DNA from: a virus
Length of the DNA stretch: 64,000 nt
Strand: one strand, 5' to 3'
IMG/VR virus record: IMGVR_UViG_3300048834_000128
Span: 11,879 to 75,878 of that record
Part shown: positions 2,956-48,566 of the stretch, in pieces
Numbering within the stretch: position 1 is the first letter of the stretch
How the letters are laid out: each line of letters opens with the position of its first letter
Made by a program: the position numbers and the translations under genes
Notes under the pieces: model-generated
The model's input: the letters and a program-made list of their open reading frames with translations, nothing else
The model's database searches: none
What the model was told of the DNA's origin: nothing

Positions 2956-5134
2956 CAAGGATATCAAGTACAAGAACATTCCCAAGTCGATACTCCTTCA
3001 ATATTCTGACGGAGAAACATTCATAGACTTCAATCTCGAAGACCCCGACCTCGATACCATCAGAGTCCCCCTGCCTAAAACACCACGTTGGGATAAGATT
3101 GACAACTTCGGACTACCTGCCGTCGAGCAGAAATTCAACATTCAGCAGATTCCGGCAAAGATTATAGAACTGCAGGAGGAACAGAACGAAAAAGGAGAAT
3201 TTCTCACCCAGGAGGAGATTTGGGATAAGATTGAAACCAACATCGACTATTACAAGGATGAAATCAAGTACATAAAGGCTCAGTGGAAACACATACTTGA
3301 AGGATATTGGTTCTTTAACAACGGAAAGGCGACCTATATCGACGGGTGGCACTATGCCTATCTAAACTTCTTTGAACTCGATATCGGACTGCCTGAGTAC
3401 CGTGACCGTGACAGACGATTCTTTCACTTTGCGAGATTCTGCAAACTCGACCCTTCATGCTTCGGATTCATATACCCCAAACACCGACGTGAAGGGGCTA
3501 CCTATAAGACGAGTTGCATACACTACTTCATCATCAGCCTACTCATAAGGGCGAGGGGCGGTATTCAATCCATGACGGACGATAGCGGACGTGACGTATT
3601 TCAGAAGCACGTTATTGATCCGTGGAGTCAGATGCCGTTCTTCCTAAAGCCGAATCATGACGGAGGTGACAACCCGAAAGCAAAACTCAGGTTCTATCCA
3701 TCGGCTTCAAGAGGTAAGATTGGAATAAAGAGAAGGTCGAACAAGTCATTGAGAAGTGAGATTGAGTATCGTGCCAGTGGCGAACTTGCATTTGACGGAA
3801 CAAAATTATTCTTCTACCACCATGAGGAGGTCGGCAAAACCAAAGATGTAGACATCAATAAGCGTTGGGAGGTCGTACAACTGACCCTATCCACGGGAGG
3901 AAACTCAAAGGTTCACGGGTTCTCGATACATACTTCTACCGTCGGAGAAATGGATGCGGGAGGCGGTCAGCAGTTCCGAGAACTATGCGACTCAAGCATG
4001 TGGGGACAACGGAACGCAAACGGACAGACCGCTTCTGGACTCTATATCCTATTCATACCTGCATGGGACGGACTTGAAGGATTTGTCGACGAATATGGAA
4101 TGTCCGTAATAGATACCCCTACTCAGCAGCAGTCGGACTTCATAGGGAAGAAAATCGGTGCAAGACAATTCATAGAGAACACCCTTGAACACTTGAAGAC
4201 ACTCCCTAAGAAAGACAAACTGCTTCAGTTCCAACGTGAACACCCGACGACTTTCAGAGGGTGTTTCAGGTCGAACATCAAGTCACCATTCTTCAATATG
4301 CAGAAACTTGAGGAACGCATGGACGAACTCAGGGTTGACAGAACCGCCGTAATCCACGGGGATTTCAAATGGAAGAACGGAGTAAGGTTCGGAACGGTCA
4401 TATTTGAAGAACACGAAAATGGCAGGTTCAGATTATCTAAACGACTCGACTCGTCGGAATCAAACAAGATTACATGGGACTCATCACTTGAGAGTTGGAC
4501 AGCCCACAACGTCTACTATTGTGCAGGTGCCGACCCATATCGTTCAGACAAAACCAAGAGCTCCAAGCAGTCATTGGGAGGAGGTGCGGTCTATTGGGGG
4601 CACGATATAAGAAAAGACCCTTTCGAGAAACCGATTGATGATTGGGAGTCGGCAAGATTCATTTGCACCTACCTTTACAGACCTCCCACTACCGACGACT
4701 TCTGTGAGGATATGCTCATGATGTGCTGGTACTACGGATGCCCGATGTATCCCGAAACCAACGTCGAGAAGGTAAGGGAGTACTTCACAAGGAACGATTG
4801 CGAGTTCATGCTCGTACACCAATACAAGAAAGGCAAATACGACGAGCAAGGTGGTCAGCAGACCGATGAAAGAACCAAACAGAGGATATTTCAACTTCTT
4901 CAGATACAAGTGGAAAGGCACTGCCATAGGGAACGTCACAACGACCTTCTCAATCAGATTTACGAGATTAAGGGAGTAGACGACATGACTAACTATGACC
5001 TATTTACCGCAGCAGGTTATGCAATGCTCGGGGCGGACAACTATCTCGACGACCTTAACAAGGAAGTGCAGAATACCAAACCCGACGGAGGTAATCCAAT
5101 GCAGGACTACTACGGAAGGTTTTTCGGCAAGTAA
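2912..5134 (+). CDS. terL: Terminase large subunit, crAss-like (true start probably about 2945-2948)
   Basis: Walker A-like KHRREGAT, Walker B-like FFYHHEEVGK, TSTVG, RNase H-like GADPY and YPETN. Confidence 0.9.
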   Translation: MTNLKQWICPKMMNNKDIKYKNIPKSILLQYSDGETFIDFNLEDPDLDTIRVPLPKTPRWDKIDNFGLPAVEQKFNIQQIPAKIIELQEEQNEKGEFLTQEEIWDKIETNIDYYKDEIKYIKAQWKHILEGYWFFNNGKATYIDGWHYAYLNFFELDIGLPEYRDRDRRFFHFARFCKLDPSCFGFIYPKHRREGATYKTSCIHYFIISLLIRARGGIQSMTDDSGRDVFQKHVIDPWSQMPFFLKPNHDGGDNPKAKLRFYPSASRGKIGIKRRSNKSLRSEIEYRASGELAFDGTKLFFYHHEEVGKTKDVDINKRWEVVQLTLSTGGNSKVHGFSIHTSTVGEMDAGGGQQFRELCDSSMWGQRNANGQTASGLYILFIPAWDGLEGFVDEYGMSVIDTPTQQQSDFIGKKIGARQFIENTLEHLKTLPKKDKLLQFQREHPTTFRGCFRSNIKSPFFNMQKLEERMDELRVDRTAVIHGDFKWKNGVRFGTVIFEEHENGRFRLSKRLDSSESNKITWDSSLESWTAHNVYYCAGADPYRSDKTKSSKQSLGGGAVYWGHDIRKDPFEKPIDDWESARFICTYLYRPPTTDDFCEDMLMMCWYYGCPMYPETNVEKVREYFTRNDCEFMLVHQYKKGKYDEQGGQQTDERTKQRIFQLLQIQVERHCHRERHNDLLNQIYEIKGVDDMTNYDLFTAAGYAMLGADNYLDDLNKEVQNTKPDGGNPMQDYYGRFFGK

Positions 5135-5162
5135 CAACATACCGACGTAAACCTTAACTTTG
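5132..5162 (+). promoter_or_regulatory. Putative late promoter (portal)
   Basis: TAACAAC-N16-TAACTTTG. Confidence 0.7.
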
Positions 5163-5181
5163 TAGCAATTCATATCTGACG

Positions 5182-7677
5182 ATGAACCTTAATGCACCAA
5201 CTGCCGACGGACAAGGCATATACGGATTTCCGAGACACGACGTTCCTCCCGCAACCAAACTCAAGAAGGAATGGAATATCCAATACTGCCAAGCGATACA
5301 TTACCTTTATAGGAACGGACTTGCGGGGATAAACTTCTCCGATGTAAACCTTTTCGCACGTTACAGACAATACGGAAGCGGTGTGCAGGACCCCTATCAG
5401 TACATGGACCGACTCGGTATCAATCACCCAAGCGTGCCGACACTGCCCAATCAGCAGACCGTCGCACAAGGTGAATTAGGTCCTGGAAGTCAGCCTTCCG
5501 ACCACGCAAGAAAGGGTTGGATGGACATTAACTTTGAAATCCTATCGGTAGCACCCAACTTCAAGAACATAGTACTCGGAATGTTCGAGGAAATCGAACA
5601 TGACATTTACGCTGACGGAGTTGATGACAAGTCTTCTACCGAACGTGAGATGATGAAATGGGCGTTATGGGTAGAGAAGGAGATGCAGGGATATATGGCA
5701 CAGATGGAGGAAGCGGCGGATATCAAGATACCGAGGTCAAACTATGTGCCCGAAACCATGCAGGAACTTGAAATGTTCTCCTCACTCGGAGGATTCAAAC
5801 TCAGAAGCGAGATAAGCATTGAAGCGGCAATCAAGTACACCATGGATATTTCCGAAATGAAGGAGATAAAGCGTAAGGTCATTCAGGACTTATTTGAACT
5901 CGGAGTCGCATGCACAAAGGACTATCTCGACCCCGACACTCAGAAAGTCAAGGTGAGATACTGCGACCCCGCACTCATGGTTCTTCCATACACCAATCAG
6001 GATGAATTTACAAACATGCCGTTCGCAGGGGAGTACACCTTCTATACCATCGCTCAGATGCGTTCGCTCGTGGACGAGAACGGAAAGCAATGTTTCACAA
6101 ACGACGAACTTGAGATAATCGCAAAAAGCGTACTCAATCAGTTCTCAAATCCTCAGACATTCTCGAACTGGACCATAGACCCCGTTACGGGATGGTATCT
6201 TTGGGATAATTTCAGGGTATGCGTACTTGACTGCGAGTTCAAATCCGATGACTACAAATACATTACCGAACGTGTAAACAATGAGGGCGAAACCGTCGTA
6301 CATGAAGACGAGTTCGGACGTGTCAAGAATAGCGACAAACGCAAGACCCACGTCACCAAGACCCTAATGGTCTACAAATGCAAGTGGATAGTGGGTACGG
6401 TATATGCTTGGGATTACGGACATCAGTTCAACGTGCCAAGACCTACGCCTTCTCAGGCAAACCTTAGTTTCCACGCCTACAAGATGAAGGCAGGTTCCTA
6501 TGTCAAGAGAATGATTCCGCTATTGGATTCGATTCAACTTGCATGGTTGAGACTTCAGAACCTTATCGCCAAGGCAGCACCTCCCGGACTTGCAATCGAG
6601 GTAGGTTCACTCAATAACGTGACGGTCGGAAATCAGAAACTCAATACCCTTGACATTCTAAAAATCAGATCCATTACCGGAGATTTGCTATATCAGGTCG
6701 GAACCCACAGGTCATATATGCCGACCGCCACCAATTACAAACCTATTCAGGAGTTGCAGGGTGGGGTAGGAGGACAGATGCAGGAGATTTTCTTCCTTAT
6801 CAACTCAAATATCGAGATGATTAGGCAGATTATCGGAATAAACAGGGTTGCCGACGGAAGTTCACCGACTGCCGACCAATTGGTAGGGGTAACGGAACTT
6901 TCTATGCAGGCTGCACAGAACACCCTCAAACCGTTATATTATTCGTATCTCACAATTAAAGAGAGGTTGTGCCGAAATGTTGCACAGAGAATACAACTGA
7001 TTGTCAAACACAACGGAATGTATGAATTGTCCTATTATAAGGCGTTGGGTAAGAATATTACCGAAACGCTCAAGATAGGTGCCGAGGTCAACAATGCCAT
7101 GTTTGGAATAAGGATAGAGGCAAGACCCGACGCAGGGGAGAAGCAAATCATACTTCAGGCTGCACAACAGGCGATGTCGGTTGGTAGGCAAGGTGTCCCG
7201 ATGATAAGCATGAGTGACTATCTTATGATAAACTCATTTTTGCAGAGAGGGATGCTCAAATTCGCACAGGCATACCTTGCCCATAAGGAACAGCAGACAA
7301 TCAAACGTCAGGAAGAACAGCAACAGGCGGCAATCGAAGCACAGGGTCAGCAGAACATGATGCTTGAACAGACAAAGGCACAGCAACAGCAGCAGTTAAT
7401 AGAATTGCAGAATAATCAGCTGATGTTACAGGAGAATGAGAAACGCAAGACTCTGATGCTCCAGGAAGAAGAAAAGCGGAAGACAATCCAATTACAAGGT
7501 AGTCTAAAGATGAATGAAATCCGACTGACCAAAGGGCTGGACCTTGAGAACGACATCATCACAAAAGGAATGGAAATCGAGCAGCAGGACAAGGAACTTG
7601 AGGTTCACGAAGAACTTGAGGAGAAGAAAATCAAGGCTATAAAGGATAAACCGACACCAACAACACCAAAGAAATGA
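5182..7677 (+). CDS. Portal protein, crAss-like
   Basis: 831 aa following TerL; IRQIIGINRVADGS motif; Q-rich coiled-coil C-terminal barrel. Confidence 0.88.
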   Translation: MNLNAPTADGQGIYGFPRHDVPPATKLKKEWNIQYCQAIHYLYRNGLAGINFSDVNLFARYRQYGSGVQDPYQYMDRLGINHPSVPTLPNQQTVAQGELGPGSQPSDHARKGWMDINFEILSVAPNFKNIVLGMFEEIEHDIYADGVDDKSSTEREMMKWALWVEKEMQGYMAQMEEAADIKIPRSNYVPETMQELEMFSSLGGFKLRSEISIEAAIKYTMDISEMKEIKRKVIQDLFELGVACTKDYLDPDTQKVKVRYCDPALMVLPYTNQDEFTNMPFAGEYTFYTIAQMRSLVDENGKQCFTNDELEIIAKSVLNQFSNPQTFSNWTIDPVTGWYLWDNFRVCVLDCEFKSDDYKYITERVNNEGETVVHEDEFGRVKNSDKRKTHVTKTLMVYKCKWIVGTVYAWDYGHQFNVPRPTPSQANLSFHAYKMKAGSYVKRMIPLLDSIQLAWLRLQNLIAKAAPPGLAIEVGSLNNVTVGNQKLNTLDILKIRSITGDLLYQVGTHRSYMPTATNYKPIQELQGGVGGQMQEIFFLINSNIEMIRQIIGINRVADGSSPTADQLVGVTELSMQAAQNTLKPLYYSYLTIKERLCRNVAQRIQLIVKHNGMYELSYYKALGKNITETLKIGAEVNNAMFGIRIEARPDAGEKQIILQAAQQAMSVGRQGVPMISMSDYLMINSFLQRGMLKFAQAYLAHKEQQTIKRQEEQQQAAIEAQGQQNMMLEQTKAQQQQQLIELQNNQLMLQENEKRKTLMLQEEEKRKTIQLQGSLKMNEIRLTKGLDLENDIITKGMEIEQQDKELEVHEELEEKKIKAIKDKPTPTTPKK

Positions 7678-7916: not shown

Positions 7917-7949
7917 AATCCTCGGGAATAAAATCTCGGGGATTTTTTT
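7917..7949 (+). terminator. Intrinsic terminator
   Basis: AATCCTCGGGA-loop-TCTCGGGGATT followed by a T tract. Confidence 0.75.
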
Positions 7950-7956
7950 AAATAAA

Positions 7957-7988
7957 TTTGGCAATTACAATACGATGTAATACATTTG
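7957..7988 (+). promoter_or_regulatory. Bacteroidota sigmaA-type promoter with TAC-N3-GTA palindrome
   Basis: TTTG-N20-TACATTTG; TACGATGTA at 7971-7979. Confidence 0.75.
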
Positions 7989-8455: not shown

Positions 8456-8880
8456 GTGTTTAGGGTATTAGACACAGATTACATAGAAAGTATTCAAATC
8501 CATAGAATATTCGGAAATGTCCTCGCTTAATACCCTAAGTGGGGCTTTTCTTTTTAAGTCAAGTCCTACACTCGGATATGATGTATGAGCCACAGGACGC
8601 GTTTAATCATATCTTAAAGCGGTAAAAGTATGCTGCGAACCGCAATCGGTTGACACACTCCGAAAGGGGCAGGGAGAGCCGAAGGACAGTGACAGGGTGT
8701 TCAATCGGAAACGATAGCCTTGACAGTCTCCCTTGCTAATGGATAAGAACATCACATTGGCTAATGCGAAACTCCCGACTTCTCAAGTCAATTATAAAAG
8801 CATTAGTGTCCAATCTCTTTATGTCTATTTATTTAGACGTTTAGGGAAGGGACACATTTTGCCGCTCATCAGCCCTCATT
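8456..8880 (+). ncRNA. Candidate structured RNA: loop-loop attenuator followed by a multi-stem domain
   Basis: No credible ORF; many complementary stems and GAAA tetraloops (see findings). Confidence 0.5.
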
Positions 8881-9174: not shown

Positions 9175-9205
9175 TAACAACGTATTTTCTTTCTGTATAT
9201 ATTTG
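9175..9205 (+). promoter_or_regulatory. Putative late promoter (scaffold-capsid)
   Basis: TAACAAC-N16-TATATTTG. Confidence 0.7.
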
Positions 9206-11869: not shown

Positions 11870-11886
11870 CTAATTTAAACTATTGA

Positions 11887-11927
11887 GGGAGACGGGAGTA
11901 AAATCCCGTTTCCTTTTTTTACCTTTG
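11887..11927 (+). terminator. Terminator overlapping a -7 promoter element
   Basis: GGGAGACGGGA-loop-TCCCGTTTCC plus T tract, then TACCTTTG at 11920-11927. Confidence 0.7.
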
Positions 11928-12919: not shown

Positions 12920-12949
12920 ACGAGTTCGTTCATAATTCGTGGTTATCTA

Positions 12950-13007
12950 AGACCCTCATTAGAAATAGTGAGGGTTTTGTTTTTTAGAAAAAATGTATTT
13001 ATATTTG
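12950..13007 (+). terminator. Terminator followed by a sigmaA-type promoter for the tRNA
   Basis: AGACCCTCA/TGAGGGTTT hairpin; TTTG(12976)-N20-TATATTTG(13000-13007). Confidence 0.7.
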
Positions 13008-13018: not shown

Positions 13019-13089
13019 AAGGATATAGTTTAATGGCAGAATAAAGGTCTCCAAAACCATTGGTAGCGGTTCGAGTCCGTTTGTCTTTG
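13019..13089 (+). tRNA. trnW: tRNA-Trp(CCA), no encoded 3' CCA
   Basis: Acceptor AAGGATA/TGTCTTT; D arm TAGTTTAATGGCAGAAT; anticodon loop CT-CCA-AA; T loop GGTTCGAGTCC; one A-A mismatch in the anticodon stem. Confidence 0.85.
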
Positions 13090-13106
13090 CAAACATTTAT
13101 TAAGAA

Positions 13107-13238: not shown

Positions 13239-13271
13239 TGCCAATCCAATTGCAGGGTTGGCATTTTCTTT
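13239..13271 (+). terminator. Intrinsic terminator
   Basis: TGCCAATCC/GGGTTGGCA plus T tract. Confidence 0.7.
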
Positions 13272-13274: not shown

Positions 13275-13305
13275 CAACAACCTAACGTGCTAAATATTAT
13301 ATTTG
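13275..13305 (+). promoter_or_regulatory. Putative late promoter (lysis)
   Basis: CAACAAC-N16-TATATTTG. Confidence 0.65.
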
Positions 13306-14088: not shown

Positions 14089-14122
14089 CACTCACTCAAA
14101 CAACACATTAACATATATTTGG

Positions 14123-14184
14123 TGCCTGAAAGTAAAATTTCGGGCATTTTTATTTGGTTTTTATAATACGTTGTAATACATTTG
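14123..14184 (+). promoter_or_regulatory. Terminator, then sigmaA-type promoter with TAC-N3-GTA palindrome
   Basis: TGCCTGAA/TTCGGGCA hairpin; TTTG(14153)-N20-TACATTTG(14177-14184); TACGTTGTA at 14167-14175. Confidence 0.7.
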
Positions 14185-14415: not shown

Positions 14416-15564
14416 ATGAAATCAGTAATAAACAAAAAGATAGCGGTAAAGATAAACACCGAGCGAGATAGGGAGTTGGTAATCCCTTTCTTGCAGTCAT
14501 TGGGAGGTGGGAATGTTCACCATGTAACCAATGACAATATAGATATCGGTGAAATATGGTACATATCAACAGATAAAAATAAGATAGTGATTAACAAGTA
14601 TGTAGATTTAAAAAGTGAAGGTTACACCATCCTCGAAGGAGTGCCGACTGATTTTGAACTACCAAAAACAACTGAAAGTAAAACAAGGGAGCAGCAGTTA
14701 GAGGAAGAAAACAAGGCTTTGAGGGATACTTTAGAAATGGCAAAACAATATTTCTCAGATGGCACTACTGATGACTTGATTATCCTATGTGAAAGGATTG
14801 ATAAACAACTAATAAATAACCAATGAATAAAGAAGAATTTTATAAAAGAATAGATGACTTGACAAATGAAACAGGGTTTGATTTATCTAAAGAACAAAAA
14901 CGATTTGCATTTGTTGTTGCCGAACAATACGCCACATCCCAAACCTCACAACTTGAAAAGGAGATAGAGGTGCTGAAAGAAAAGATTGAAATAGTAAAGA
15001 ATATTCTTAACGATTGTATTAGTACAGATAGTGCCGTTTGGACGATAAACACAGCAAGAGAAATATTGTATAAAGACACCCACACCACCAAAACAATAGA
15101 GAAATGAAACAACCAAATAATATAATAAACTATATCTGTTATTTATTAATGTGCTTAAATGCCCTTTATAGCGTATGGAATCACGAAATTGGTTTAGCAT
15201 TCCATATATCAACCACACTATTATTCATGAGATTGTGGCACATTGAATTAGGTAAGGGTAAAGTTACAAATGTTAAAGCGGATAGTGTTGAGTTAATTAT
15301 AAAACAAAAAGATAACCAATGAAACAACTAATAATAGCCTTAATCCTTCTATCAAGTTGCGATAGAAATTACAACAACGATGTAAGCGGCTCAAAAAGAC
15401 AAACACCATCGGCAAACACAATATTGCTTTCAAAAGGCAGCGACGATAATGTAATGACAATAGAACATGATTCGTGCGAATATATACTATTTCAAGGATT
15501 TCAAAGAGGTGGTATAATTCATAAACAAAATTGCAAATATTGTAAACAAAGAAATCAAAAATGA
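14416..15564 (+). other. Four small low-GC ORFs (14416-14826, 14823-15107, 15104-15322 membrane protein, 15319-15564 lipoprotein)
   Basis: ATGA-coupled chain; LSSC lipobox in the last ORF. Confidence 0.6.
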
Positions 15565-15614
15565 AACACCTACTTATACTAATAATCCTATCAAGTTGCT
15601 CTCAAAAGGCATGA
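15561..15614 (+). pseudogene. Orphaned 5' end of a spanin-like lipoprotein gene
   Basis: MKHLLILIILSSCSQKA-stop resembles SSCTSQKAW of the 16338 gene. Confidence 0.55.
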
Positions 15615-16390: not shown

Positions 16391-16802
16391 TCTGAGTTCA
16401 TGCACAAGTCAAAAGGCATGGATAAAACGTGGTGAGTCTAAGGGATGGTTACAGACCAAATCCGACACGTTAATCATCAAAGACACGATTCAAGGGTGGA
16501 GATATGACACTACGGTTCAATTCCTTTGGGTTCACGATATAGACACCCTAATAACCTCAAATGGCAAAGATAGTGTAGTTACCATAGTAAAGTGGAAAGA
16601 ACGCACCATACGCCAAATAAAGACCGAAAAAGACACGATAGTAGAGAGTAAGATAATTACCAATGAGATTCCGATATTAAAAATCATCAAACCGAACTTT
16701 TGGCAACGTCTATGGTGGCTATGGATAATACTTACATTCATACTGACAATTTGGTTAGTGAAGTATTTAAGAGAGGATTACAACGTAAATAAAGAATTAT
16801 AA
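16338..16802 (+). CDS. Putative unimolecular spanin
   Basis: LSSC lipobox, beta-rich middle, C-terminal transmembrane helix. Confidence 0.7.
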   Translation: MKITINKASLAVLFVIVSLSSCTSQKAWIKRGESKGWLQTKSDTLIIKDTIQGWRYDTTVQFLWVHDIDTLITSNGKDSVVTIVKWKERTIRQIKTEKDTIVESKIITNEIPILKIIKPNFWQRLWWLWIILTFILTIWLVKYLREDYNVNKEL

Positions 16803-16804
16803 TT

Positions 16805-20478: not shown

Positions 20479-20509
20479 TAACTACCTATTGTCTAATTTG
20501 CTAAATTTG
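20479..20509 (+). promoter_or_regulatory. Putative late promoter (tail operon)
   Basis: TAACTAC-N16-TAAATTTG. Confidence 0.65.
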
Positions 20510-24837: not shown

Positions 24838-24843
24838 TAATAA

Positions 24844-29160: not shown

Positions 29161-29163
29161 GAA

Positions 29164-34100: not shown

Positions 34101-37100
34101 AGACAATCGACCGACTTGCCGAAGAAATCACCGCAGAACAATACAATCGTGATGCCGACGGAAACGGAAGGTATTCCGAAGATGAGGTCAAGGCGGAACT
34201 GATGGAAGTCCTCAGAATGTATGACCATTATTCTGCAATGGCGGATGAGATAGTCGATTCAAGGGAACGCAGTGCCGAAATGGAAGCGGAAATGCTTACC
34301 ATGGATGCCGAAGAAGAACTTATCGCTGCATTGGGCAAGAATCCCGACATGGAGGCTGCCGATGCCGCATTGGATATCATGGAGATGTTCTCAGACGAGG
34401 AACTGACTCGGATGGCGGAAGAAAAGGACATGGCATTCTCCCCTGAGATTGAGGAAGAAATATCTGACATTGAATCGGATTGGACTCCATGGGATGATGT
34501 GCCCGAAACCCCCTCAACAACCGACAAATTAATCGACGCACTCGAAAAGGCAAAGATTGATACCAAGAACACCCTTAACGCATTCGGACTACTGCCTACC
34601 ACCTATAACGCTGCAATTGATATCGTCATAGCGGCAATCAAGGCAGGAAAGGCTATCTCGGTTGCAATCAAGGAAGCACTCGACTATATCAGGTCTACCA
34701 ACCCCGAAAACTTCGATGAGAAAGGATTCACCGATAAGATTCAAAGCGTGTTTGATAAGAACACCAAACCAAAGGAAGAAGTAAAGCCCGAACCTAAGCA
34801 AGAGAAGGAAGAAAAACCTAAGACACGTGAGAAATCATTGTTCAAGAGGGCATTTGAAGGAACTACCAACTCAAGGATGAAGCAACTCATTTCCGAACAT
34901 GGGCTTGATTACGAGATAGAATCGCACGATAGGGCACAAAAGGCCGCTAAAGACTTTGTTAATGAAGTCGGACCTGACGCTGCATTGGATGCCGTAAGAA
35001 AGAACATGATTGAAGATGGTGCTGCAGCATTCGTTTGGGCGGAAATCATTGATAAGGTTGAGGTCGAACTTCAATCCGCTACCGACCCTGACGAAATATC
35101 AAGATTGCAGGAGTATCAACGTGATTTGCTCAGTGAGTTCGATAGAAAGGCTCGTTCGGGAGGTAGATTCATAAGTGCATTGCAAAGGATTTACAGGGAT
35201 TCGCTATTCAATTACAAGGCGGATACTCAGATTCAGAGGTATAAGGATATGAACAACGGAGTCATTCCTGCCGAAATAGAACAGAAGTTCAAAGACCTTG
35301 AAACTAAACTTAAAGAGGTCAATGAGAAACTCAAGGAAACCGAAGCGAAACTCGAAGAGGAACGTGAGAAACAGGCTATTGCCGACATAAAGGAAAGTGT
35401 TGAACGTGAAGCCAAGACCAAACCATCGGTAAAGAAGGCTGCAAAGCGTATCGCAGACAAGATAAGGGAGGGTAAGACCAACCGCCCCGACATATTCATG
35501 TCAAGCAGTCCTGCCGCTATCGTATGGAACGGGGCATTGGAAGTTGCCGCCAAGGCGGTAGAAGCGGGAGGCAGTATTGCCGAAGCCTTGCAGAAAGGAC
35601 TCGAACATATCAGAAACTCCGATTGGTATAAGAACCTTTCAGACGATACCAAGAAGTCGGCAGAGAAGGGGTTCAGAGACCATATCAACGAAACCAATCC
35701 TAAGAACACCCAAGTTGAAGTCGTAGGAGATAAGATTAGAATACCGCACGAACTTATCAGACAGAAAGTTGCCGATGGTATCACCGATCCGAACCAGCTC
35801 GCACAATCAGTATTAGACGAAATAAAGTCGGAATATCCCGATTTGACCATTCGTCAGGTTCGTGACGCCATATCAAAGTATGGAAGACAGGTAAATATGT
35901 CCAAAGAGGATATTGAAGTCAAGATACGGAAGATAAAGCGTCTGCAAAAAGCCATTTCGCAATTGGAGGATATCGCACAAGGCAAGAGACCATTGAGAAG
36001 CGGACTCCAAAGAGACCCGCTTGATGCCGAAGAACGTGCCATTCAGAAAGAGGTCAAGGAACGGATGAAGGAACTCCCTGCCGATGAAGAAACCGCAGCA
36101 AGAGAACTCAAGACCGCACTCGATGCAGTCAAGTCAAGGCTTAAGAACGCAATCGAAGATATCCAAAGGGAGATTGATACACGTGCCAAATCACCGAAGA
36201 AAGGAACGATAGAATACGACCAGGAAGCCAAAGACCTTGCTGCCGAACGTGACAGATTGAAAGCATTGAGGGATGAGATTCTCGGACCTAAGACTCTAAC
36301 CGAAGAACAGATGATTGACCGTGCTATCAAGGGACTTGACAGAAGTATCCGAGAAATGCAGCGTCAGATAGCGGAAGAAGATGTCGCCCCTAAGAGCAAG
36401 ACTCAGGTAACTTCTCCCGAGATAGAGGAAAGACGTGCAAGGAAACGATTGCTTGCCGCTCAACTAAAGACCATGAGAGAGGAATTGGGTATCACTCAAG
36501 CCCGACAACTTGCCAACGCCAAGAAACGTGCTCAAGCACAGATTGACGAACTGCAAAGAAGATTGGACGATAGGGATTTCAGCAAGAAGACCAAGAAACA
36601 ATCGCCTACCGACCAAGAACTTAATGATTTGAGGGCGGAGAAAGTGCGTATCCAACAGGAGTATGATAAGGAGCAATATAAGAATGAACTGAAGAATAGG
36701 GCGCTATGGCAAAAAATCATAGATGGTTTAATTGAAATTATAAACCTGCCGAGGGCTGCAAGGGCAACTGCAGAATTTTCTCCCGTATTGATTCAGGGAG
36801 GTATTCAGACAGTCAGTCAACTCGTCAGAAATCCTATGTCTGTAATGAGAGCATTTAAACGATTGGGGTTAAACTTCGTTTCAGAAAGTAAAGCAGAAAG
36901 ATGGATGGATAGATTGGTGGCAAGTTCGGAGTACCCCGTAATGGAACAGGCAGGTCTTTCAATAACTAAGACCGATGCAAAGATGACCGCAAGGGAGGAA
37001 CTATATTTGAGTGGGCTTCTTACTCACATGTGGAACGCAATGGGATTGCCATTGAAGGCATTGGGTAAAAAACCTTATGAGATATGGAAGGCGGCCAATC

Positions 37101-38035
37101 TACCCGCCGCATTTGAACGTGCAGGAACGGGTTATCTTAACGTGCTAAGGGTTGAAAGATTTTTGCAGGGAATGAGGATGCTCGAAATGCAGGGTAAGAA
37201 TCCACAGGACAATCCGCAGGACTACAAAGCTTTGGCAAAAGTAATAAACACATTGACAGGTCGTACCTCTTTAGGTAGGGCAGAGATGATGTCGAAGGTA
37301 TTGTCAATAGCATTGTTCTCCCCTCGAAACTATGCTTCGGTAGTTAAGCAGACATTATTATTACCACTCCTTGCAGAAGGCAGAAACAAGGACGGCACAA
37401 TGAAGCCATCGGTTGCTCAGAAGATTGCAATGACCGACTTCATTACCTACATGGGCATTATGACATCAATCATAGCAATGGTTAAATTCGCATACGAAGA
37501 CGATGATGACCCCGACGCACCGAAAGTAAACACCGACCCGAGAAGCAGTCAGTTCATGACCATAAGGACAGGAAACACGGTAGTAGACCCTTGGCATGGT
37601 ATGAAGCAGTACGTGGTATTGGCATCAAGACTCATCTCAGGTTCAACGGTAACAGGCAAAGGCGAAGTCAAGGAACTCGGCTCAGGTCCATACGTTCCTA
37701 CAGAGGGTAAACTGCTATACAACACCTTATTCAAGTACAAACTATCTCCTACCGCTTCAATGGTGGAGAAATACCTTTCCGCCCCACGGAAGAAAGACGA
37801 GAAAGGTGAATATGTCAAGGTTGACGAGTTTTCTAAGGAACCTATAAATGTCCTCGATATGACCACATCAAACCTCTATCCTATCTATTGGGAAACCCTA
37901 ATGGAAGTAAACAAGGACAGACCTGCCGACGTTGCATTATTCCTTAATGCACTCGCCTTCTGGGGTATCGGTACTCAGACATACGAACAACAGGTTAAGA
38001 AGAAAAAAACTACCGAATACAAGAAAGTGGACTAA
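31133..38035 (+). CDS. Giant (2300 aa) ejection/polyvalent protein
   Basis: Gly/Ala-rich hydrophobic helices, long coiled coils and inserted domains; no RNAP DxDGD motif seen. Confidence 0.7.
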   Translation: MPEELLPPPPPKKSQTTDVDNSGLLPPPPKKKSGIDTSESLNTPSAFPSTNNLPFGGTLPTFQKPMDKYSDPYGGEDAPPKKVPEKPKSTGGFVKPLPPTKDPRQITQETEMSDNTKVKPTKVDTIQFTEYEAVKGDDGIMVIKPKPVVPAATEPSLPPEQEAYQGTGEPPSYLAGIGQGAVSGVGQMVKGLAGLLATQKVMTLPNGETVTYSDKKLSDYALYKVGQTIEDFAKEYFPTTEGQNEELLGKLASGAGSMIPFIFGSVLGGAFKINAYVTPTLMGSLQNGASEYESAIANGVDEDTALKAFWSGAAIGSLEGLPIGQWAKRLNGKTGGLLDEAMKKRMRNKLGTPEAVLGALEEAGQEASTQFLNNVSAMNIYDETRGLWDGVAESGMLGGILGGTLNGITSVLTSKLEDPNLTPAEKVQVQKSLDYMNQQAKKLEGVAADDLVKLNDDSDSVKELKVQKQELEMDMASPEITPDVKEQISAKIEETDAQIAQVKQEELQAESAMVQTEGAIADLEAEKAEIESQMSTATTATQEILQPQLDAIVSDLESLREIVPQQEVTEQTQTPVGEANIHDYISSLSQDNYLFSHVTTEGNARSITEGGMSISPGTGISSTLSQLGASSVNGQITRLMNGEVVHRDTNNNSLAIISVPKAEIDAMSGKDVAEKFENWLAENGHINKEGKYAIPQEFNAGYLSGDSFITNKAAQNQQNNVKEETNDQGRTEVLTGQQEDMGVAESATPVVEDVSLTDEVNNVEGVAGQGVEVSEKPYTMDYPEWKEQASKGKMHRATGITTEEERSLESPIEIGEYNGYSPQDIAHFYDRRRGGDIAGYREYIVDAIYAGKDVPDKIIETVFSDKAMGKMKKLRDKNVKNKPKITNETNTTDGKKTAEKRNAKGVQESVQQTPAKKKIRRKGTPIHQRKIKGKRLQAVNIEPHTLREEIMQRIIGGARVIREDIVKMLGSETEAKIKMNLTAKKENGGKTIDRLAEEITAEQYNRDADGNGRYSEDEVKAELMEVLRMYDHYSAMADEIVDSRERSAEMEAEMLTMDAEEELIAALGKNPDMEAADAALDIMEMFSDEELTRMAEEKDMAFSPEIEEEISDIESDWTPWDDVPETPSTTDKLIDALEKAKIDTKNTLNAFGLLPTTYNAAIDIVIAAIKAGKAISVAIKEALDYIRSTNPENFDEKGFTDKIQSVFDKNTKPKEEVKPEPKQEKEEKPKTREKSLFKRAFEGTTNSRMKQLISEHGLDYEIESHDRAQKAAKDFVNEVGPDAALDAVRKNMIEDGAAAFVWAEIIDKVEVELQSATDPDEISRLQEYQRDLLSEFDRKARSGGRFISALQRIYRDSLFNYKADTQIQRYKDMNNGVIPAEIEQKFKDLETKLKEVNEKLKETEAKLEEEREKQAIADIKESVEREAKTKPSVKKAAKRIADKIREGKTNRPDIFMSSSPAAIVWNGALEVAAKAVEAGGSIAEALQKGLEHIRNSDWYKNLSDDTKKSAEKGFRDHINETNPKNTQVEVVGDKIRIPHELIRQKVADGITDPNQLAQSVLDEIKSEYPDLTIRQVRDAISKYGRQVNMSKEDIEVKIRKIKRLQKAISQLEDIAQGKRPLRSGLQRDPLDAEERAIQKEVKERMKELPADEETAARELKTALDAVKSRLKNAIEDIQREIDTRAKSPKKGTIEYDQEAKDLAAERDRLKALRDEILGPKTLTEEQMIDRAIKGLDRSIREMQRQIAEEDVAPKSKTQVTSPEIEERRARKRLLAAQLKTMREELGITQARQLANAKKRAQAQIDELQRRLDDRDFSKKTKKQSPTDQELNDLRAEKVRIQQEYDKEQYKNELKNRALWQKIIDGLIEIINLPRAARATAEFSPVLIQGGIQTVSQLVRNPMSVMRAFKRLGLNFVSESKAERWMDRLVASSEYPVMEQAGLSITKTDAKMTAREELYLSGLLTHMWNAMGLPLKALGKKPYEIWKAANLPAAFERAGTGYLNVLRVERFLQGMRMLEMQGKNPQDNPQDYKALAKVINTLTGRTSLGRAEMMSKVLSIALFSPRNYASVVKQTLLLPLLAEGRNKDGTMKPSVAQKIAMTDFITYMGIMTSIIAMVKFAYEDDDDPDAPKVNTDPRSSQFMTIRTGNTVVDPWHGMKQYVVLASRLISGSTVTGKGEVKELGSGPYVPTEGKLLYNTLFKYKLSPTASMVEKYLSAPRKKDEKGEYVKVDEFSKEPINVLDMTTSNLYPIYWETLMEVNKDRPADVALFLNALAFWGIGTQTYEQQVKKKKTTEYKKVD

Positions 38036-38064
38036 AAACAACAGACGACAAACAAACAAAATAA

Positions 38065-40296
<2,232 letters not shown>

Positions 40297-40298
40297 TT

Positions 40299-40850
40299 AT
40301 GGCAACATTCGGCAAAACGGCAATAGGAGGAACCACGGGAGGTACATTTACGGACCAATCCTATGTGGGAACATGGTTTACCGCACCAGAAGACGGAACG
40401 ATAACCAAGATTTGGTTCTATGCACAGGTTCCCTTTGCAGGGTCTCCCGTGGACTTCAAGACCGCTATATATAGCAGGTCGAGCAATCTACCTCTGACAT
40501 TATTGGCATCAAGTGCGGGAGTGGGGAGTATTCCATTGGCGTTCGCTTGGGCGTCATGTGACATAAGTTATGTGATGACAAACGGGGAGGAACTCTTTCT
40601 TTCGGCATGGGTCAATGATGCCTATGACATAAAGTATGATTCGGGAACCACCGACCAATCGTTCGAGAAGTACAATCAGACATACCCGACATGGATTACA
40701 CCTATCAACACGGGAGCGGATTTCAACGCCTATACCACGGAAGTGTCAATCTATGCGGAATACACTCCTGCAGGACCACCATCCCCGTTCGGAACACCTT
40801 CCATAAGAGGGATACAGGTAATCAAAGGAATACAAGCAATCAAATTTTAA
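40299..40850 (+). CDS. Putative virion appendage protein
   Basis: Beta-rich; DGTITKIWFY motif; in the fibre operon. Confidence 0.5.
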   Translation: MATFGKTAIGGTTGGTFTDQSYVGTWFTAPEDGTITKIWFYAQVPFAGSPVDFKTAIYSRSSNLPLTLLASSAGVGSIPLAFAWASCDISYVMTNGEELFLSAWVNDAYDIKYDSGTTDQSFEKYNQTYPTWITPINTGADFNAYTTEVSIYAEYTPAGPPSPFGTPSIRGIQVIKGIQAIKF

Positions 40851-40851
40851 T

Positions 40852-41445
40852 ATGGGAACAAAAAACGCATTAGATATCAGTGTTACAAGACAATCCGTAC
40901 CGAGTTCAATAACAAGGGCGGGTTCGGCAGACGGACTTTGGCCCGTAGAAATGATTTCGGTACTTCAATCGGATTTTACACTGAGTGCCGCATCGGGAGT
41001 GCAGACCGCATTCTCGTCGGGGCAAGACGTAATCACATTGGAAGGGTCCACTACCTATGAGTTTTGGGGTCAGTTCGACATCACCTGCGGAACTACAACG
41101 CATACTACGGCAATAGCATGGCTCGCAGGGTCGGGGCTTACGATAAATTGGATAAACTATCAGACAAGGGCGTGGAACTCCGTTGCCAATACGGTTGCCA
41201 CCGCTACTCAGGGTACATGGATTGACAGGCTTGCATCAACGGTAGTGACATCGACGGCTACGACGGCAGGTAATCATATAATGTTCAGAGGATTCATAAA
41301 TGTAAATGCAGGCGGAACACTGACTCCTCAGATAGCCTTTTCTGCCAATCCAACGGGAACCAACCTCATGAAGGCGGGCAGTTTCTTCGCATTCAAACCC
41401 GTAGGAACTAATACAGTTACCGTTACATCACCTTCAATAGCGTAA
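40852..41445 (+). CDS. Putative virion appendage protein (C1q/BclA-C-like fold possible)
   Basis: T/S/A-rich beta sandwich pattern. Confidence 0.45.
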   Translation: MGTKNALDISVTRQSVPSSITRAGSADGLWPVEMISVLQSDFTLSAASGVQTAFSSGQDVITLEGSTTYEFWGQFDITCGTTTHTTAIAWLAGSGLTINWINYQTRAWNSVANTVATATQGTWIDRLASTVVTSTATTAGNHIMFRGFINVNAGGTLTPQIAFSANPTGTNLMKAGSFFAFKPVGTNTVTVTSPSIA

Positions 41446-43706
41446 TGAGAGGCATCTTTTCCATAATAGGGGCGAATGCAGGGAGTGCGACTCCACCCGA
41501 CCCCGACACCTATACATTGAGTGCCGAATCGACGACAAGTGCGGGAGTGTATAAGGACGGGGACTTGGTAAGGACTCTTTGGAGTAATGTGGTGCAGGGT
41601 GCGGGAACGTATGCCAAACCTACTTGGGATGGGGATGATGACAACGGCAATCCCGTTACATTACCTGCCACAATAACGGTTATGGCGAACCGAATGACCT
41701 ACCAATGGCATGCAGGTATCGGAAATACAAGTACCGAAACGGAAGGACCTAACAAGATACGTGCATTAAGGCAGGTATGGGATTCTGTCACTTACGGGGA
41801 TTATCTTTATAATGTGACGGGATTCGTAGAGGGCAATTCACCGATATTCAAAGTTGATTACACTACCGACATCAACTACATGATACCCGTTCTACCGACC
41901 TCTAACCATGACGTGGTGTTTGAAATCAACTATCTATGCAGGGACGCTTCAAAGATGTATTTTGCAGGATTCGACGCATACGGATATCTTGCCGCAAATG
42001 CAATAGACTCATGTATCTATGCGATAGAACTGCCTTCGGAAGCAAAGTTCACATTCTCGTCAGGCACGACCGTCCAGCCCGCACTTGCAGACGAAACATT
42101 CAGTTGTACGGCACTCGTATATGACGATTCGACCGCAAGAATAACGGGCATGGCGGTACATCAGACGGGTGCGTTTCTCTACATAACGAGGGGTGCTCAA
42201 AACAGACTCGAACTTTATAATAAGAATACGGGAGGAGGAGGTTCGCTAATCAACTCGACTCCCATGACAGACCTTTCCATTGACGGAAATGTACTTTGGG
42301 CTATAAGCGGAAGCGACATTATCAAATGGAATATCAATGCACTTAACGGACTTATAACTTCGGCAGGAGTCACCATTTCGGCAACCAATCCCACAAGGAT
42401 ACATGCTTCGGGAGGTAACGTATATGTTATTGAAGCGGACACCATGCAGGTCAAGGCATACAATTCTTCAGGAGTGCTTCAATGGACATTCGGGCAGTCG
42501 GGAGGTTATACCAACGCACCATTGGCAGCAGATGACAAGTTCCACTTCATAGATTCGGTAGACCTGTTTGCAAGGGGAGTCATTACCACAGATTCGTCAA
42601 GCGGAGATATTTGGATTGGAGACACAGGCAATAACCGAATGATGAGATACGATTCGTCAAGGACATTGCTCGATAGTTTCTCATACCTGCCTATGAATTA
42701 CAATGCTGCTGCCGACATTAACGACGGGCAGAGGGTATTTGCCTTGTTTCAGGAGTTTGACGGCATTACCGAAGAGTTCGTCGCCAATTGGGAAGCCAAC
42801 CTTTGGGCACAGGTGGACCCTACCGACTACATTCAGATGGACAGGCGTAACGTATTCAGGAACACTTGGACAATCGACGGGCATACCTTCGCTACGATAG
42901 ACAATTATTCGGATGGCGGAGGGCTGAGGTTCCCCGAAGTGGTGGAACTTACAAGCACGGGCATAAGACTCACGGGAATAAATTGGGATTACTTCTCAAT
43001 GGATATCGTCGAACAGAACGGAGATATAATCAGTTTCCCTTACAATGAATCGACGTCAGGAACTCAGAACCTTACAAGACAGGTCTACACGGGATTGGAT
43101 GGCAGCGATAATCCTCAATGGAACGCACCGACCACCATATCTTCCGTGCCACTTGCATTAGATACTCCGACTTGGAGTAACGGGTCAAGACCTTCTTCTA
43201 AGGGAGTCATACTCTCACCTGCTTGGCAGAACGGAGGCAGACACTTCGGTAGATATGCCGACGGATCGTGGAAATGGATGGTAGGCCCGAGTACTGCCGA
43301 AAGTTATTCAGGACCATGGTTGACTGACGGAACATTCGATTGCGGCAATGACATTCCTGCGTTCGGAGGTTATGCAGGTTGGGATAGGTATGCTTGTGAC
43401 GACATGGAAGTATGGAACTACATCGGGGAAGGTTGGAAACAGAATCAGGTAAACAAGTGGACATTGTACCACGACACGGGACTCATGCTTATGCAATTGG
43501 GCAAGACAGGTCCCGAAGCACAGATAGATTCAGGAACAGACGAAGCACCTGCACAGGCGGCAGGAAATGCGATTGCAGGTCGATTTGTCAAGATAGGCAC
43601 TAAATATTATATCTTTCATTGCGACGAATCAAGGCATGGAGCGGTTCACAGGTTCGAGATAGACGGATATTCTACCATTCAGACGTTCGATTTTGTAGAG
43701 ACATAA
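41445..43706 (+). CDS. FlgD-Ig-like plus beta-propeller (NHL-like) protein
   Basis: SAGVYKDGDLVRTLW...WDGDDDNG; IWIGDTGNNRMMRY. Confidence 0.7.
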   Translation: MRGIFSIIGANAGSATPPDPDTYTLSAESTTSAGVYKDGDLVRTLWSNVVQGAGTYAKPTWDGDDDNGNPVTLPATITVMANRMTYQWHAGIGNTSTETEGPNKIRALRQVWDSVTYGDYLYNVTGFVEGNSPIFKVDYTTDINYMIPVLPTSNHDVVFEINYLCRDASKMYFAGFDAYGYLAANAIDSCIYAIELPSEAKFTFSSGTTVQPALADETFSCTALVYDDSTARITGMAVHQTGAFLYITRGAQNRLELYNKNTGGGGSLINSTPMTDLSIDGNVLWAISGSDIIKWNINALNGLITSAGVTISATNPTRIHASGGNVYVIEADTMQVKAYNSSGVLQWTFGQSGGYTNAPLAADDKFHFIDSVDLFARGVITTDSSSGDIWIGDTGNNRMMRYDSSRTLLDSFSYLPMNYNAAADINDGQRVFALFQEFDGITEEFVANWEANLWAQVDPTDYIQMDRRNVFRNTWTIDGHTFATIDNYSDGGGLRFPEVVELTSTGIRLTGINWDYFSMDIVEQNGDIISFPYNESTSGTQNLTRQVYTGLDGSDNPQWNAPTTISSVPLALDTPTWSNGSRPSSKGVILSPAWQNGGRHFGRYADGSWKWMVGPSTAESYSGPWLTDGTFDCGNDIPAFGGYAGWDRYACDDMEVWNYIGEGWKQNQVNKWTLYHDTGLMLMQLGKTGPEAQIDSGTDEAPAQAAGNAIAGRFVKIGTKYYIFHCDESRHGAVHRFEIDGYSTIQTFDFVET

Positions 43707-43722
43707 TATTGTCATACATTTG
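43692..43722 (+). promoter_or_regulatory. sigmaA-type promoter, leaderless transcript
   Basis: TTTG-N19-TACATTTG; ATG 5 nt downstream. Confidence 0.7.
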
Positions 43723-43726
43723 AGGC

Positions 43727-44884
43727 ATGAACGAACCTAAATTCTCAATAGTAATGATTGCCAAGAACGAAGCGAACGTGCTTGGCAGATGCCTTAACTC
43801 ACTTTCAAACTTCATTCAAAGGGGTGGAGAAATAATCCTATGTGATACGGGGTCTACCGACAATACGATTGCCATTGCCCACCAATACGGATGCAAGGTG
43901 ATAGAATACTCAGGTGCCCGAAAGGAACTCAAACGTGCAGACGTGGAGAACATCAATTTCCTATCAAAGAGATACGACGAAGATAAGATTGCCGAATACG
44001 GAGACTTCATCTTCGATTTCTCAAATGCCCGAAACCATGCCACCGAACACGCCAAGAACGACTTCATAATCAGTCTCGACGCCGACGAGGTATATGCCAC
44101 ATTGGATATTGACGCCATTAACTCACTTATTGACAATGGTGCGAGAAACATCAGTTACGACTTCGTATTCTCTTTCAGACCCGATGGGACTCCCGACGTT
44201 CAGTTCGTGCAATCAAAGGCATTTGACAGAAGATACTTCAAGTGGGTCAATGTAATTCACGAGGTATTGCAGGGCGAAGGTCCGACCATTTACGTTCCAT
44301 CGGAAACCATAAGACTCGAACATCATCAGGAGGCAGGGAAGGAACATCGTACCAACTATATCAAAGGTCTTGCATACGACCATCTTTGCAACCCCAAGGG
44401 TGACAGAAATGCACACTACTACGCAAGAGAACTCATGTACACGGGCAGATACCGTTGGGCGATTGACAGATTCAGACACCACCGAAACCTCAACGCTTGG
44501 GACTTGGAAAGGAATCAGAGTCTTATCTACATGGGCGACTGCTACGGATACATCGGAAACCAACCTATGCAGGAAGCATGCTATCTCGACGCCATAAAGG
44601 AACTCGCAACCCGAAGGGAAGGACTTATAAAACTCGCTTGGTTATATTACTCTCAGAAGAAATACCGTCACGCCATCATATACGCAACGGGTGCACTATC
44701 CATTCCTTGGACAAGTTACTACTCGAACCGTGCATCACACTATAATGAGGAACCTTACGAGATACTCTACCTGTCATACGGATGGCTCGGAGAAATACCA
44801 AAGGCTAAGGACTTCTGCCAAAAGTGTATCGAACTTTGCCCCGACTCAGAGAAGTTCAAAGACCATCTGAAATACTATCTATAA
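43727..44884 (+). CDS. GT2 glycosyltransferase with TPR repeats
   Basis: SIVMIAKNE, DTGSTDNT, DFSNARN, LDADE, IHE; TPR-like C-terminus. Confidence 0.92.
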   Translation: MNEPKFSIVMIAKNEANVLGRCLNSLSNFIQRGGEIILCDTGSTDNTIAIAHQYGCKVIEYSGARKELKRADVENINFLSKRYDEDKIAEYGDFIFDFSNARNHATEHAKNDFIISLDADEVYATLDIDAINSLIDNGARNISYDFVFSFRPDGTPDVQFVQSKAFDRRYFKWVNVIHEVLQGEGPTIYVPSETIRLEHHQEAGKEHRTNYIKGLAYDHLCNPKGDRNAHYYARELMYTGRYRWAIDRFRHHRNLNAWDLERNQSLIYMGDCYGYIGNQPMQEACYLDAIKELATRREGLIKLAWLYYSQKKYRHAIIYATGALSIPWTSYYSNRASHYNEEPYEILYLSYGWLGEIPKAKDFCQKCIELCPDSEKFKDHLKYYL

Positions 44885-44912
44885 CAACATAAGGATTTTG
44901 TCGTTAAATTTG
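44882..44912 (+). promoter_or_regulatory. Putative late promoter
   Basis: TAACAAC-N16-TAAATTTG. Confidence 0.7.
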
Positions 44913-47039: not shown

Positions 47040-47045
47040 TCTGAC

Positions 47046-47942: not shown

Positions 47943-48170
47943 ATGAATATATTTAAAAGGAGAGTCAAAAAGAAAATCAGTTTTATTAAAACGGTTGAAC
48001 TCAAAAGTGCGAATAGTTGGGATACTTCCTATCATACAGAGGTAAATGGTCGCTATGTATCCAATAGCGTATCTCACAATAAAGAACAAGCGGAATCAAT
48101 CTTTGAAAAAGTATTGGAACTGCATGGGACAACAAAAACCAAAGAAGTGTTAAGAGAAGAATATCGGTAA
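47943..48170 (+). CDS. Hypothetical protein, leaderless
   Basis: TTTG(47907)-N20-TACATTCG(47931-47938); ATG 5 nt later. Confidence 0.55.
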   Translation: MNIFKRRVKKKISFIKTVELKSANSWDTSYHTEVNGRYVSNSVSHNKEQAESIFEKVLELHGTTKTKEVLREEYR

Positions 48171-48538
48171 TGCCTAAGCAATGTCAGCACGAAGGGTGTA
48201 CCAACCCGATATTCTCCCACGGATTCTGCCGTTGGCACCAAGGATATAGAACCGACAAGAAACCCAAAAGAATCAATCCCATATCGGAGAAACTCGCTGA
48301 GAACCTGAAGGTCTACAAGGCGGTTAGGGAGGAGTTCCTCTCAAGACACCCTCTCTGCCAGGCAAAGATAGCAGGATGCACAAGGGAGTCGGTTCAGATC
48401 CATCACAAGAAAGGTAGAATAGGCGAACTTCTCACAGACAACCGATACTTCCTCGCGGTCTGCCACAACTGCCACCACCATATCGAACTCAATCCAATCG
48501 AAGCAAAACTCAACGGATGGTCACTCGATAGGTGTTAA
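48170..48538 (+). CDS. Zn-binding HNH endonuclease
   Basis: CQAKIAGC...IHHKKGR...VCHNCH. Confidence 0.75.
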   Translation: MPKQCQHEGCTNPIFSHGFCRWHQGYRTDKKPKRINPISEKLAENLKVYKAVREEFLSRHPLCQAKIAGCTRESVQIHHKKGRIGELLTDNRYFLAVCHNCHHHIELNPIEAKLNGWSLDRC

Positions 48539-48566
48539 CAACGTATCGTTTTTATTCCTATTTTTG
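48536..48566 (+). promoter_or_regulatory. Putative late promoter
   Basis: TAACAAC-N16-TATTTTTG. Confidence 0.7.

Follow-up and report, generated by a model that had tools for sequence, protein, structure and literature searches.

In bacteriophage T4, middle promoters combine a MotA box near -30 with the sigma-70 -10 element and use MotA together with AsiA, and in P2, 186 and P4 (Ogr, B, Delta) and in Mu (C, Mor) several late operons with weak promoters have a common activator site, these sites being dyads centred at about -55 or -43. In Bacteroidota, the -7 element TAnnTTTG, which extends from T-12 to G-5 with transcription starting 4-5 nt further downstream, is the signature of the primary sigma factor (Baez et al., PMC6847099). 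Among crAss-like phages, only phi14:2 has a published promoter analysis; it reports that a virion polymerase transcribes the early genes, that the middle genes of phi14:2 and 13 related genomes carry an 'extended tripartite motif' with two blocks resembling -35 and -10 elements, and that the E. coli sigma-70 holoenzyme needs no phage factor to transcribe from the phi14:2 promoters (Drobysheva et al., bioRxiv 10.1101/2020.03.07.982082). Here we describe a promoter-like arrangement in the IMG/VR virus record IMGVR_UViG_3300048834_000128, a complete phage genome of 75,878 bp that carries direct terminal repeats; the stretch analysed, hereafter the window, comprises 64,000 nt (bases 11,879-75,878 of the genome), and positions are those of the window unless a locus of a relative is named. 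In this arrangement, called class A, a short box is followed after 16 nt by TAnnTTTG, and it occurs beside canonical promoters of the form TTTG-N19/20-TAnnTTTG.

With a probability of roughly 0.6, we read the seven class-A sites as a phage-specific promoter class driving virion and lysis units, at which the host sigma-A polymerase would work with an early phage factor docked at the box. Judging from their gene content, these units are presumably transcribed late. The observation itself is real, statistically strong and evolutionarily conserved.

A box at fixed distance from a host-type -7 element

A pattern scan of the window for YAACWAC-N16-TAnnTTTG returned exactly seven matches, all on the + strand, while 100 dinucleotide-preserving shuffles of the window gave a mean of 0.00 and a maximum of 0. 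These are the coordinates at which a sequence-only reading of the same DNA had claimed seven sites with an invariant 16-nt spacer, and the claim is borne out. Zero extra class-A sites lie in the 11.9 kb of the genome outside the window, and TAnnTTTG stands at N16 after only 7 of the 41 copies of YAACWAC in the 75.9-kb genome. The motif is absent both from the early strand and from coding DNA: all seven sites are intergenic, in short gaps, with a same-strand ATG 7-43 nt downstream, and they head virion and lysis units (Table 1).

An information profile of 27 unique sites from four genomes defines the full box as an asymmetric 10-mer, WAACAASnTA, with AACAA as its invariant core; among the relatives position 1 is T, A or C and position 7 is C, G, T or A. 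An A occupies box position +9 in 24 of the 27 unique sites, though this position lies outside every selection pattern. Outside the box and the -7 element the profile carries no signal, and neither a second half-site nor an inverted repeat was found within 25 nt on either side of the box. TAnnTTTG is exact in all seven window sites and in 24 of the 27 unique sites, the remaining three carrying one mismatch (TTACTTTG). The -33 TTTG, expected 19-20 nt 5' of the -7 element, is missing from every class-A site and WAACAAS stands there instead. On the numbering of PMC6847099 the 7-mer falls at -35 to -29 and the 10-bp box at about -35 to -26, and a canonical TTTG with a 19-nt spacer falls at -35 to -32, which is exactly the position of the class-A box. 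With this geometry the leaders of most class-A units would be about 15-22 nt, and the transcript of the holin unit, whose ATG lies 7 nt past the -7 box, is probably leaderless. Enrichment of k-mers in the upstream regions was dominated by A-rich leaders.

Four of the seven boxes share their opening TAA (5132-5134, 28252-28254, 44882-44884 and 48536-48538) with the preceding gene, whose stop codon it is; this may be why T prevails as the first base of the box. This overlap, and the fact that four sites are intra-operonic with no terminator upstream, would suit a view in which the sites are not promoters but RNA processing or translational signals in read-through transcripts, or are conserved by chance through their link to stop codons. 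We consider this very improbable. The other three sites lie away from stop codons, an exact host -7 element forms their downstream half at a fixed 16 nt, class-A sites come after terminators wherever those exist, as they do at several units, and conservation is limited to two promoter-like blocks.

The class-A arrangement is conserved at orthologous genes

Searches with the portal and capsid proteins brought up six related viral contigs at 54-64% identity, and a broader capsid profile reached 80 loci down to 29%. Four relatives are at least 90% complete (G001, G002, G004 and G211) and four are fragments (G003, G005, G212 and G213). Each of these records, near-complete or fragmentary, has 2-8 copies of the core pattern, all on the coding strand and none on the opposite one, and a reversed-pattern control gave 0 matches. 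Relatives with 54-64% portal and capsid identity carry 6-8 sites per genome at orthologous genes. For each of the seven window sites one or more other lineages carry a counterpart at the orthologous gene, and for six this holds in three or four lineages (Table 1); at the scaffold-capsid position, CAACAAC-N16 is also found in the L252/L253 group, with 42% capsid identity. Altogether about 45 class-A sites exist across seven genomes, although G001 and G004 are mutually close and the clade thus amounts to about four independent lineages, not seven.

Across four lineages the pairwise identity is 0.98 in the AACAA core and 0.99 at the specified -7 positions, values that are inflated since the orthologous sites were found partly by pattern, and it drops to 0.37 over the 20 nt upstream of the box and to 0.45 both in the spacer and at the two -7 positions left free. 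Despite the pattern selection, the contrast with flank and spacer and the unselected +9 position stay informative as signs of constraint in the sequence. The idea, put forward from the letters of this DNA, that the host -7 element is kept and the -33 element is exchanged for a phage box is supported by both sequence and comparison.

A megablast search with 8 kb of the phage against deposited phages gave no match, and AACAACnTA-N13-TAnnTTTG across a viral collection returned, among the matches listed, almost only single, chance-level occurrences. A metagenome scan with the capsid profile recovered two contigs only, both previously found; among the sequencing runs listed for the phage, four DNA runs showed small shares of it and none is an RNA run. 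Cellulophaga phage phi18:3 (Pachyviridae) has no AACAAC box and no common upstream word.

The box travels with the early gene module

Six complete relatives of 66-77 kb with 38-41% capsid identity (G214, G215, G217, G219, G220 and G221; loci L327-L342 and L347-L354) lack the box: AACAA boxes number 0 on both strands and no common word takes their place. These genomes have canonical TTTG promoters in their early regions and have kept the -7 elements at the orthologous portal and scaffold promoters. According to profile searches of shared families against all open reading frames (ORFs), they share with the window phage only the virion core, that is small and large terminase, portal, scaffold, capsid and tail proteins, and a GroES-like protein, plus an HNH protein in three of the six. 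The 228-, 116-, 149-, 195-, 78-, 88- and 76-aa proteins, DnaB and the replication initiator are restricted to the box-bearing clade. By this comparison of gene content the box travels together with the early module, which fits a box reader encoded in that module; because the whole early module is clade-restricted, co-occurrence is unable to single out one reader gene. The six distant relatives are also a clear case of module exchange, with a conserved virion half and swappable early halves.

The box-lacking promoters bear on another explanation as well, in which the box is the operator of a phage repressor and an early protein bound at -35 to -26 would block promoters made of a -7 element only, until dilution, degradation or titration removes it. 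Promoters of Flavobacterium johnsoniae have a weak -33 element throughout the genome, and their -7 element comes close to being enough to define them (PMC6847099), so that -7-only promoters may work unaided, which leaves room for an operator; the orthologous late promoters of the box-lacking relatives are indeed -7 only, with no common upstream word, and the box overlaps the region that polymerase has to occupy. We nevertheless judge a repressor unlikely. A single asymmetric 10-mer with no second half-site nearby is not the dyad that phage repressors usually bind, the strict N16 to the -7 element better fits a polymerase-touching protein than a mere blocker, and repression at seven or more separate promoters to delay late genes is unusual among well-studied phages.

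Host signals, sigma factors and polymerases

We considered whether the class-A pattern is a promoter type of the host. In five chromosomes (~21 Mb), representing three named Bacteroidota genera or families, a Dysgonomonas metagenome-assembled genome (MAG) and an unclassified MAG, the pattern gave 2 matches versus 15 for a reversed control. Among 201 Bacteroidota genomes 130 had no match, the maximum was 6 (copies of one repeat), and the reversed control was as frequent or more so; the phage has 7 sites per 0.076 Mb. On these samples the motif can be set aside as a general host promoter class. A narrower version, in which an alternative sigma factor or transcription factor peculiar to that host reads the box and is exploited by the phage, receives little credence from us. 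It would account for the AAC within the box, which marks the -35 elements of extracytoplasmic function (ECF) sigma factors, and for the similar spacing. However, the pattern is no more frequent than the reversed control in the 201 genomes or in four further chromosomes (three named Bacteroidota and an unclassified MAG), what stands downstream of the box is the -7 element of the primary sigma and not an ECF-type -10, and the box is lost along with the early module in relatives that still show Bacteroidota-type promoters.

Six-frame searches of the complete genome found no sigma-70 domain (PF04542, PF08281 and PF04545; Sigma70_r2, r4 and r4_2) at E <= 1, with positive controls, although such profiles would miss a factor as divergent as T4 gp55. 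AsiA (PF09010) had no match in the genome at E <= 1, and the MotA C-terminal domain (PF09158, MotCF) had none at E <= 1 in six frames of the complete genome, with control genomes also below the cut-off. No T7-type polymerase was matched, in a search without a positive control. The 2300-aa protein (31133-38035), which lacks a DFDxD motif and matches no Pfam or PHROG family, occupies the position of the crAss-like virion RNA polymerase and is only partly conserved in the relatives. Taken together, the lack of a sigma or polymerase match and the unchanged -7 element make the host primary sigma the simplest reader of the -7 element.

A highly divergent phage sigma-like protein that replaces the host sigma and reads both the box and a -7-like element is, in our view, quite improbable. 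Phage late sigma factors can escape family profiles through divergence, as gp55 of T4 does, and several clade-restricted early proteins belong to no recognisable family. Against such a factor stand the empty six-frame searches for Sigma70_r2, r4 and r4_2 and the fact that the class-A -7 is indistinguishable from the canonical -7 of the same genome, for which one sigma region 2 is the simplest reader.

Search for a box reader

Comparison of presence and absence between box-bearing and box-lacking genomes did not separate the candidates for the box-binding protein from one another. Ten conserved early proteins gave nothing significant against Pfam and PHROGs, tblastn of three of the conserved early proteins against all deposited phages gave no match, and no Zn-finger or Mor/C-like protein was recognised among those examined.

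The 78- and 88-aa proteins are candidates. Their genes are adjacent in most relatives and here are separated on opposite strands (19485-19721, +, and 54159-54425, -); in G211 and two further contigs (83-94% identical) they are fused into one 144-aa ORF (L325 16962-17396, -). This natural fusion suggests that the two proteins act as a pair. In a model of the fused protein the C-terminal domain is a confident beta-beta-alpha-beta fold; the best structural match (Z 7.7) is within the noise range, and T7 Gp2 at Z 5.1 is not evidence.

A 228-aa basic protein adjoins the divergent early control region and has a weak likeness to MarR-type winged-helix proteins (TM score 0.42-0.50). Its putative recognition region varies between lineages, which suits the lineage-specific word in the canonical spacers (see below) better than the conserved box. 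An 86-aa basic protein (L040 6467-6727, +) is the first rightward early gene in four genomes and belongs to an unnamed family with 62 representatives in a library of 1.84 billion proteins, with no Pfam family and no PDB match. Its signature is K.Y...IAK.FGY.S..SF..SSA..RI..GI..II..VE and it is predicted to form three short helices and a long helix (pLDDT 84). The protein is missing from the box-bearing G211, which counts against it. Further candidates are a Tudor/SH3-like 76-aa basic protein, encoded by the first gene behind an early promoter, and 116-aa and 195-aa proteins, encoded in a conserved block just 5' of the terminase genes.

Class-A units and the division of labour with canonical promoters

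The genome is divided into a long + strand block and a - strand block, which continues across the contig ends, and strong terminators (Table 1) split the + strand into units. Canonical promoters head the tRNA-Trp gene, a low-GC accessory block, a glycosyltransferase, an HNH unit and the whole - strand block, where DnaB and a DUF6291 initiator are encoded for replication. Those that the sequence-only reading had placed at 7957, 8420, 12976, 14153, 43692 and 62620 (-) are present, with TTTG and spacers of 19-20 nt. In this genome the partition is complete: class A heads no non-virion unit, and the canonical class heads no recognisable virion or lysis gene.

Table 1. Putative class-A promoters, with orthologous sites in relatives, and other features of the window
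Feature	Position	Strand	Unit and context	Orthologous sites
Portal unit promoter, TAACAAC-N16-TAACTTTG	5132-5162	+	Portal ATG 5182; box TAA is the terminase stop codon	AAACAAG/CAACAAG-N16-TAnnTTTG, 19 nt 5' of portal ATG, in G001, G002, G004, G211; one reads AAACAAG-N16-TACCTTTG
Scaffold-capsid promoter	9175-9205	+	Scaffold-like 399-aa gene 9229, major capsid gene 10484; terminator 11885-11916 closes the unit	TAACAAC/G or AAACAAC-N16-TTACTTTG in G001, G004, G002
Lysis promoter	13275-13305	+	Holin-like gene 13313, endolysin 13594; directly after terminator 13239-13263	G001, G004, G002, G211
Tail-block promoter	20479-20509	+	Heads 20533-28254, including a 1136-aa protein with crAss muzzle domain	Equal architecture, spacers diverged, in G001, G004, G002, G211, G003, G005
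Promoter within virion block	28252-28282	+	Heads 28309-43706 (283-aa, 495-aa and 2300-aa proteins, 743-aa collagen-like fibre); box TAA is the stop codon of the 1136-aa gene	TAACAAG, AAACAAG or CAACAAA-N16-TAnnTTTG in G001, G004, G002, G211; ahead of the 283-aa gene, for example, TAACAAG-N16-TAGTTTTG
Promoter of 179-aa gene (44935) onward	44882-44912	+	Includes glycine-rich 297-aa protein; box TAA is the glycosyltransferase stop codon	TAACAAC/AAACAAC-N16-TAnnTTTG in G001, G004, G002, G211
Promoter of 192-aa gene (48610)	48536-48566	+	Box TAA is the stop codon of a 122-aa HNH-like gene; terminator 49215-49246 follows	G001, ahead of the 226-aa homologue
tRNA-Trp (anticodon CCA)	13019-13090		Canonical promoter 12976-13007, terminator 13239-13263; own unit between capsid and lysis units	
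Probable accessory region	14416-20388		About 20 small genes between lysis and tail units; GC 0.34-0.36; canonical promoter	Genes mostly absent from relatives
Insertion sequence stretch	49911-51796	-	IS1595-family transposase (DDE_Tnp_IS1595 and zinc ribbon) beside a Dam-type N6-adenine methyltransferase; GC 0.33	
Strong terminators	7917-7944, 11885-11916, 12948-12979, 13239-13263, 14121-14148, 49215-49246			

Several features of the canonical promoters were seen alongside. Within their spacers, about 4-5 nt ahead of the -7 box, AATACG(A/T)T occurs at 7957-7988, 14153-14184 and 62565-62596 (-). This spacer word is lineage-specific, being AATACGAT in this phage and ATAGTAAT in relatives, where the fuller form ATAGTAAT(T/A)AATT is found in L040 at 4817-4855 (-) and 8495-8533 (+); a regulator particular to the lineage, for instance the MarR-like 228-aa protein, could use it as operator. 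Many canonical -7 boxes lie 4-7 nt from an ATG (43715-43729 and 62581-62596, -, in the window; 6455-6469 and 8526-8541 in L040), and, given starts 4-5 nt past the box, the mRNAs of these early genes would be leaderless. In relatives (L022, which is G001:C1:61496-64525, and its equivalents in G002 and G004) a class-A promoter stands ahead of the HNH gene and is followed by a mini-ORF encoding MARNPS and a stop codon, a hairpin that carries a T-run and then, 4 nt ahead of the HNH ATG, a second -7 box; the window phage has no counterpart of this attenuator-like arrangement of G001, G002 and G004.

The block between the lysis and tail units, whose GC content compares with about 0.44 elsewhere, is probably a recently acquired accessory region. 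The insertion sequence stretch lies where the two strand blocks converge, and an insertion sequence within a phage genome is uncommon. A host call from its transposase was dropped, the IS1595 family being spread across many phyla and the best match reaching 61%.

Proposed mechanism

We infer from promoter anatomy and comparison that transcription starts from these sites and that the box is bound by a protein, one that the phage encodes. Host RNA polymerase carrying the primary, Bacteroidota-type sigma-A would read the unchanged -7 TAnnTTTG. Where sigma region 4 would normally read the -33 TTTG, it would meet the asymmetric WAACAASnTA instead, and an early phage protein would most likely bind this box and recruit or remodel the polymerase. 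Class-A units would then fire only once the early protein has been made, and the accessory, replication and tRNA units, with their ordinary host-type promoters, would need no such factor. The sequence-only reading had likewise invoked a phage activator or sigma-appropriating factor acting on host polymerase, and this is probably the best explanation available.

Several points weigh against it. The promoters of the box-lacking relatives have no common upstream word at the box position, and the weak -33 element of F. johnsoniae suits promoters that need no help. The search for the box-binding protein did not narrow the candidates down to one, and a factor of the phage's own host, however doubtful, would also explain the box. 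Finally, as said above, the high identities owe something to pattern selection and the clade to about four lineages.

A bolder extension, which we find tentative and rather unlikely, is that Bacteroidota phages have independently evolved a form of sigma appropriation suited to the divergent sigma-ABfr and swappable per lineage. An early protein, or a pair of them such as possibly the 78-aa and 88-aa proteins, would displace or remodel sigma region 4, WAACAASnTA would be the docking site of the box reader, and each phage lineage would have its own pair of box and reader, moving with the early gene module. Late-gene control would then be a swappable cassette across the phages of this phylum.

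For Bacteroidota phages, among them the abundant crAss-like phages of the gut and their environmental relatives, these data offer a defined 10-bp box of fixed geometry for the question of how virion genes are switched on, and the natural box-lacking relatives provide a contrast that makes the question directly testable. For genetic work in Bacteroidota the box would serve as a compact promoter part inducible by phage. Should its reader remodel the unusual sigma-ABfr, polymerase capture would gain a new example, in a phylum with transcription machinery unlike the E. coli model.

Comparison with known systems

The label 'crAss-like', given to this phage from sequence, applies in a loose sense only: the 1136-aa protein carries the crAss muzzle C-terminal domain (PF25729) and the capsid is of SU10 type, its family carrying PF17236, but no virion RNA polymerase is visible. 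By terminase the nearest named relatives are Pachyviridae, at about 27% identity. The statement that class A has no description for crAss-like phages agrees with the published phi14:2 promoters, which are of the canonical type, and a full-text literature search found no description of a phage-private box at the -33 position in Bacteroidota phages.

Like the phage described here, phi14:2 uses host polymerase for non-early genes and shares TAnnTTTG. In its genome the promoters of g070, g075, g108 and g110 read as an A-rich tract, (C/T)TTG at -33 and TAnnTTTG, with the -33 regions CTTGAC, CTTGCA, GTTTGCA and ATTTGGA, and the virion-gene half contains no AACAAC-N16 site. These promoters match the canonical class of the present genome, whereas class A has no TTG at -33. 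The housekeeping promoters of Bacteroidota, read by sigma-ABfr (PMC6847099), have an identical -7 element and a comparable distance to the start codon; they differ in carrying the -33 TTTG where class A has WAACAASnTA.

P2, 186, P4 and Mu resemble the present case in having a common activator site at several late operons with weak promoters, their activators being small early or middle phage proteins. Their dyads differ from the box found here, a single asymmetric 10-mer at -35 to -26.

The closest likeness in design is to the T4 middle promoters. In both, the downstream element of the host primary sigma is kept, a short asymmetric phage box replaces the upstream element at about the same place, many copies per genome head units whose timing is regulated, in the present phage presumably, and no phage polymerase appears to be involved. 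The differences are that this phage has no MotA or AsiA homologue, that its promoters address a divergent Bacteroidota sigma with -33 and -7 elements, and that T4 middle promoters drive middle genes while class A heads virion and lysis genes, with a putative dependence on a factor. By analogy, class A would thus work like the T4 middle promoters yet stand outside that family.

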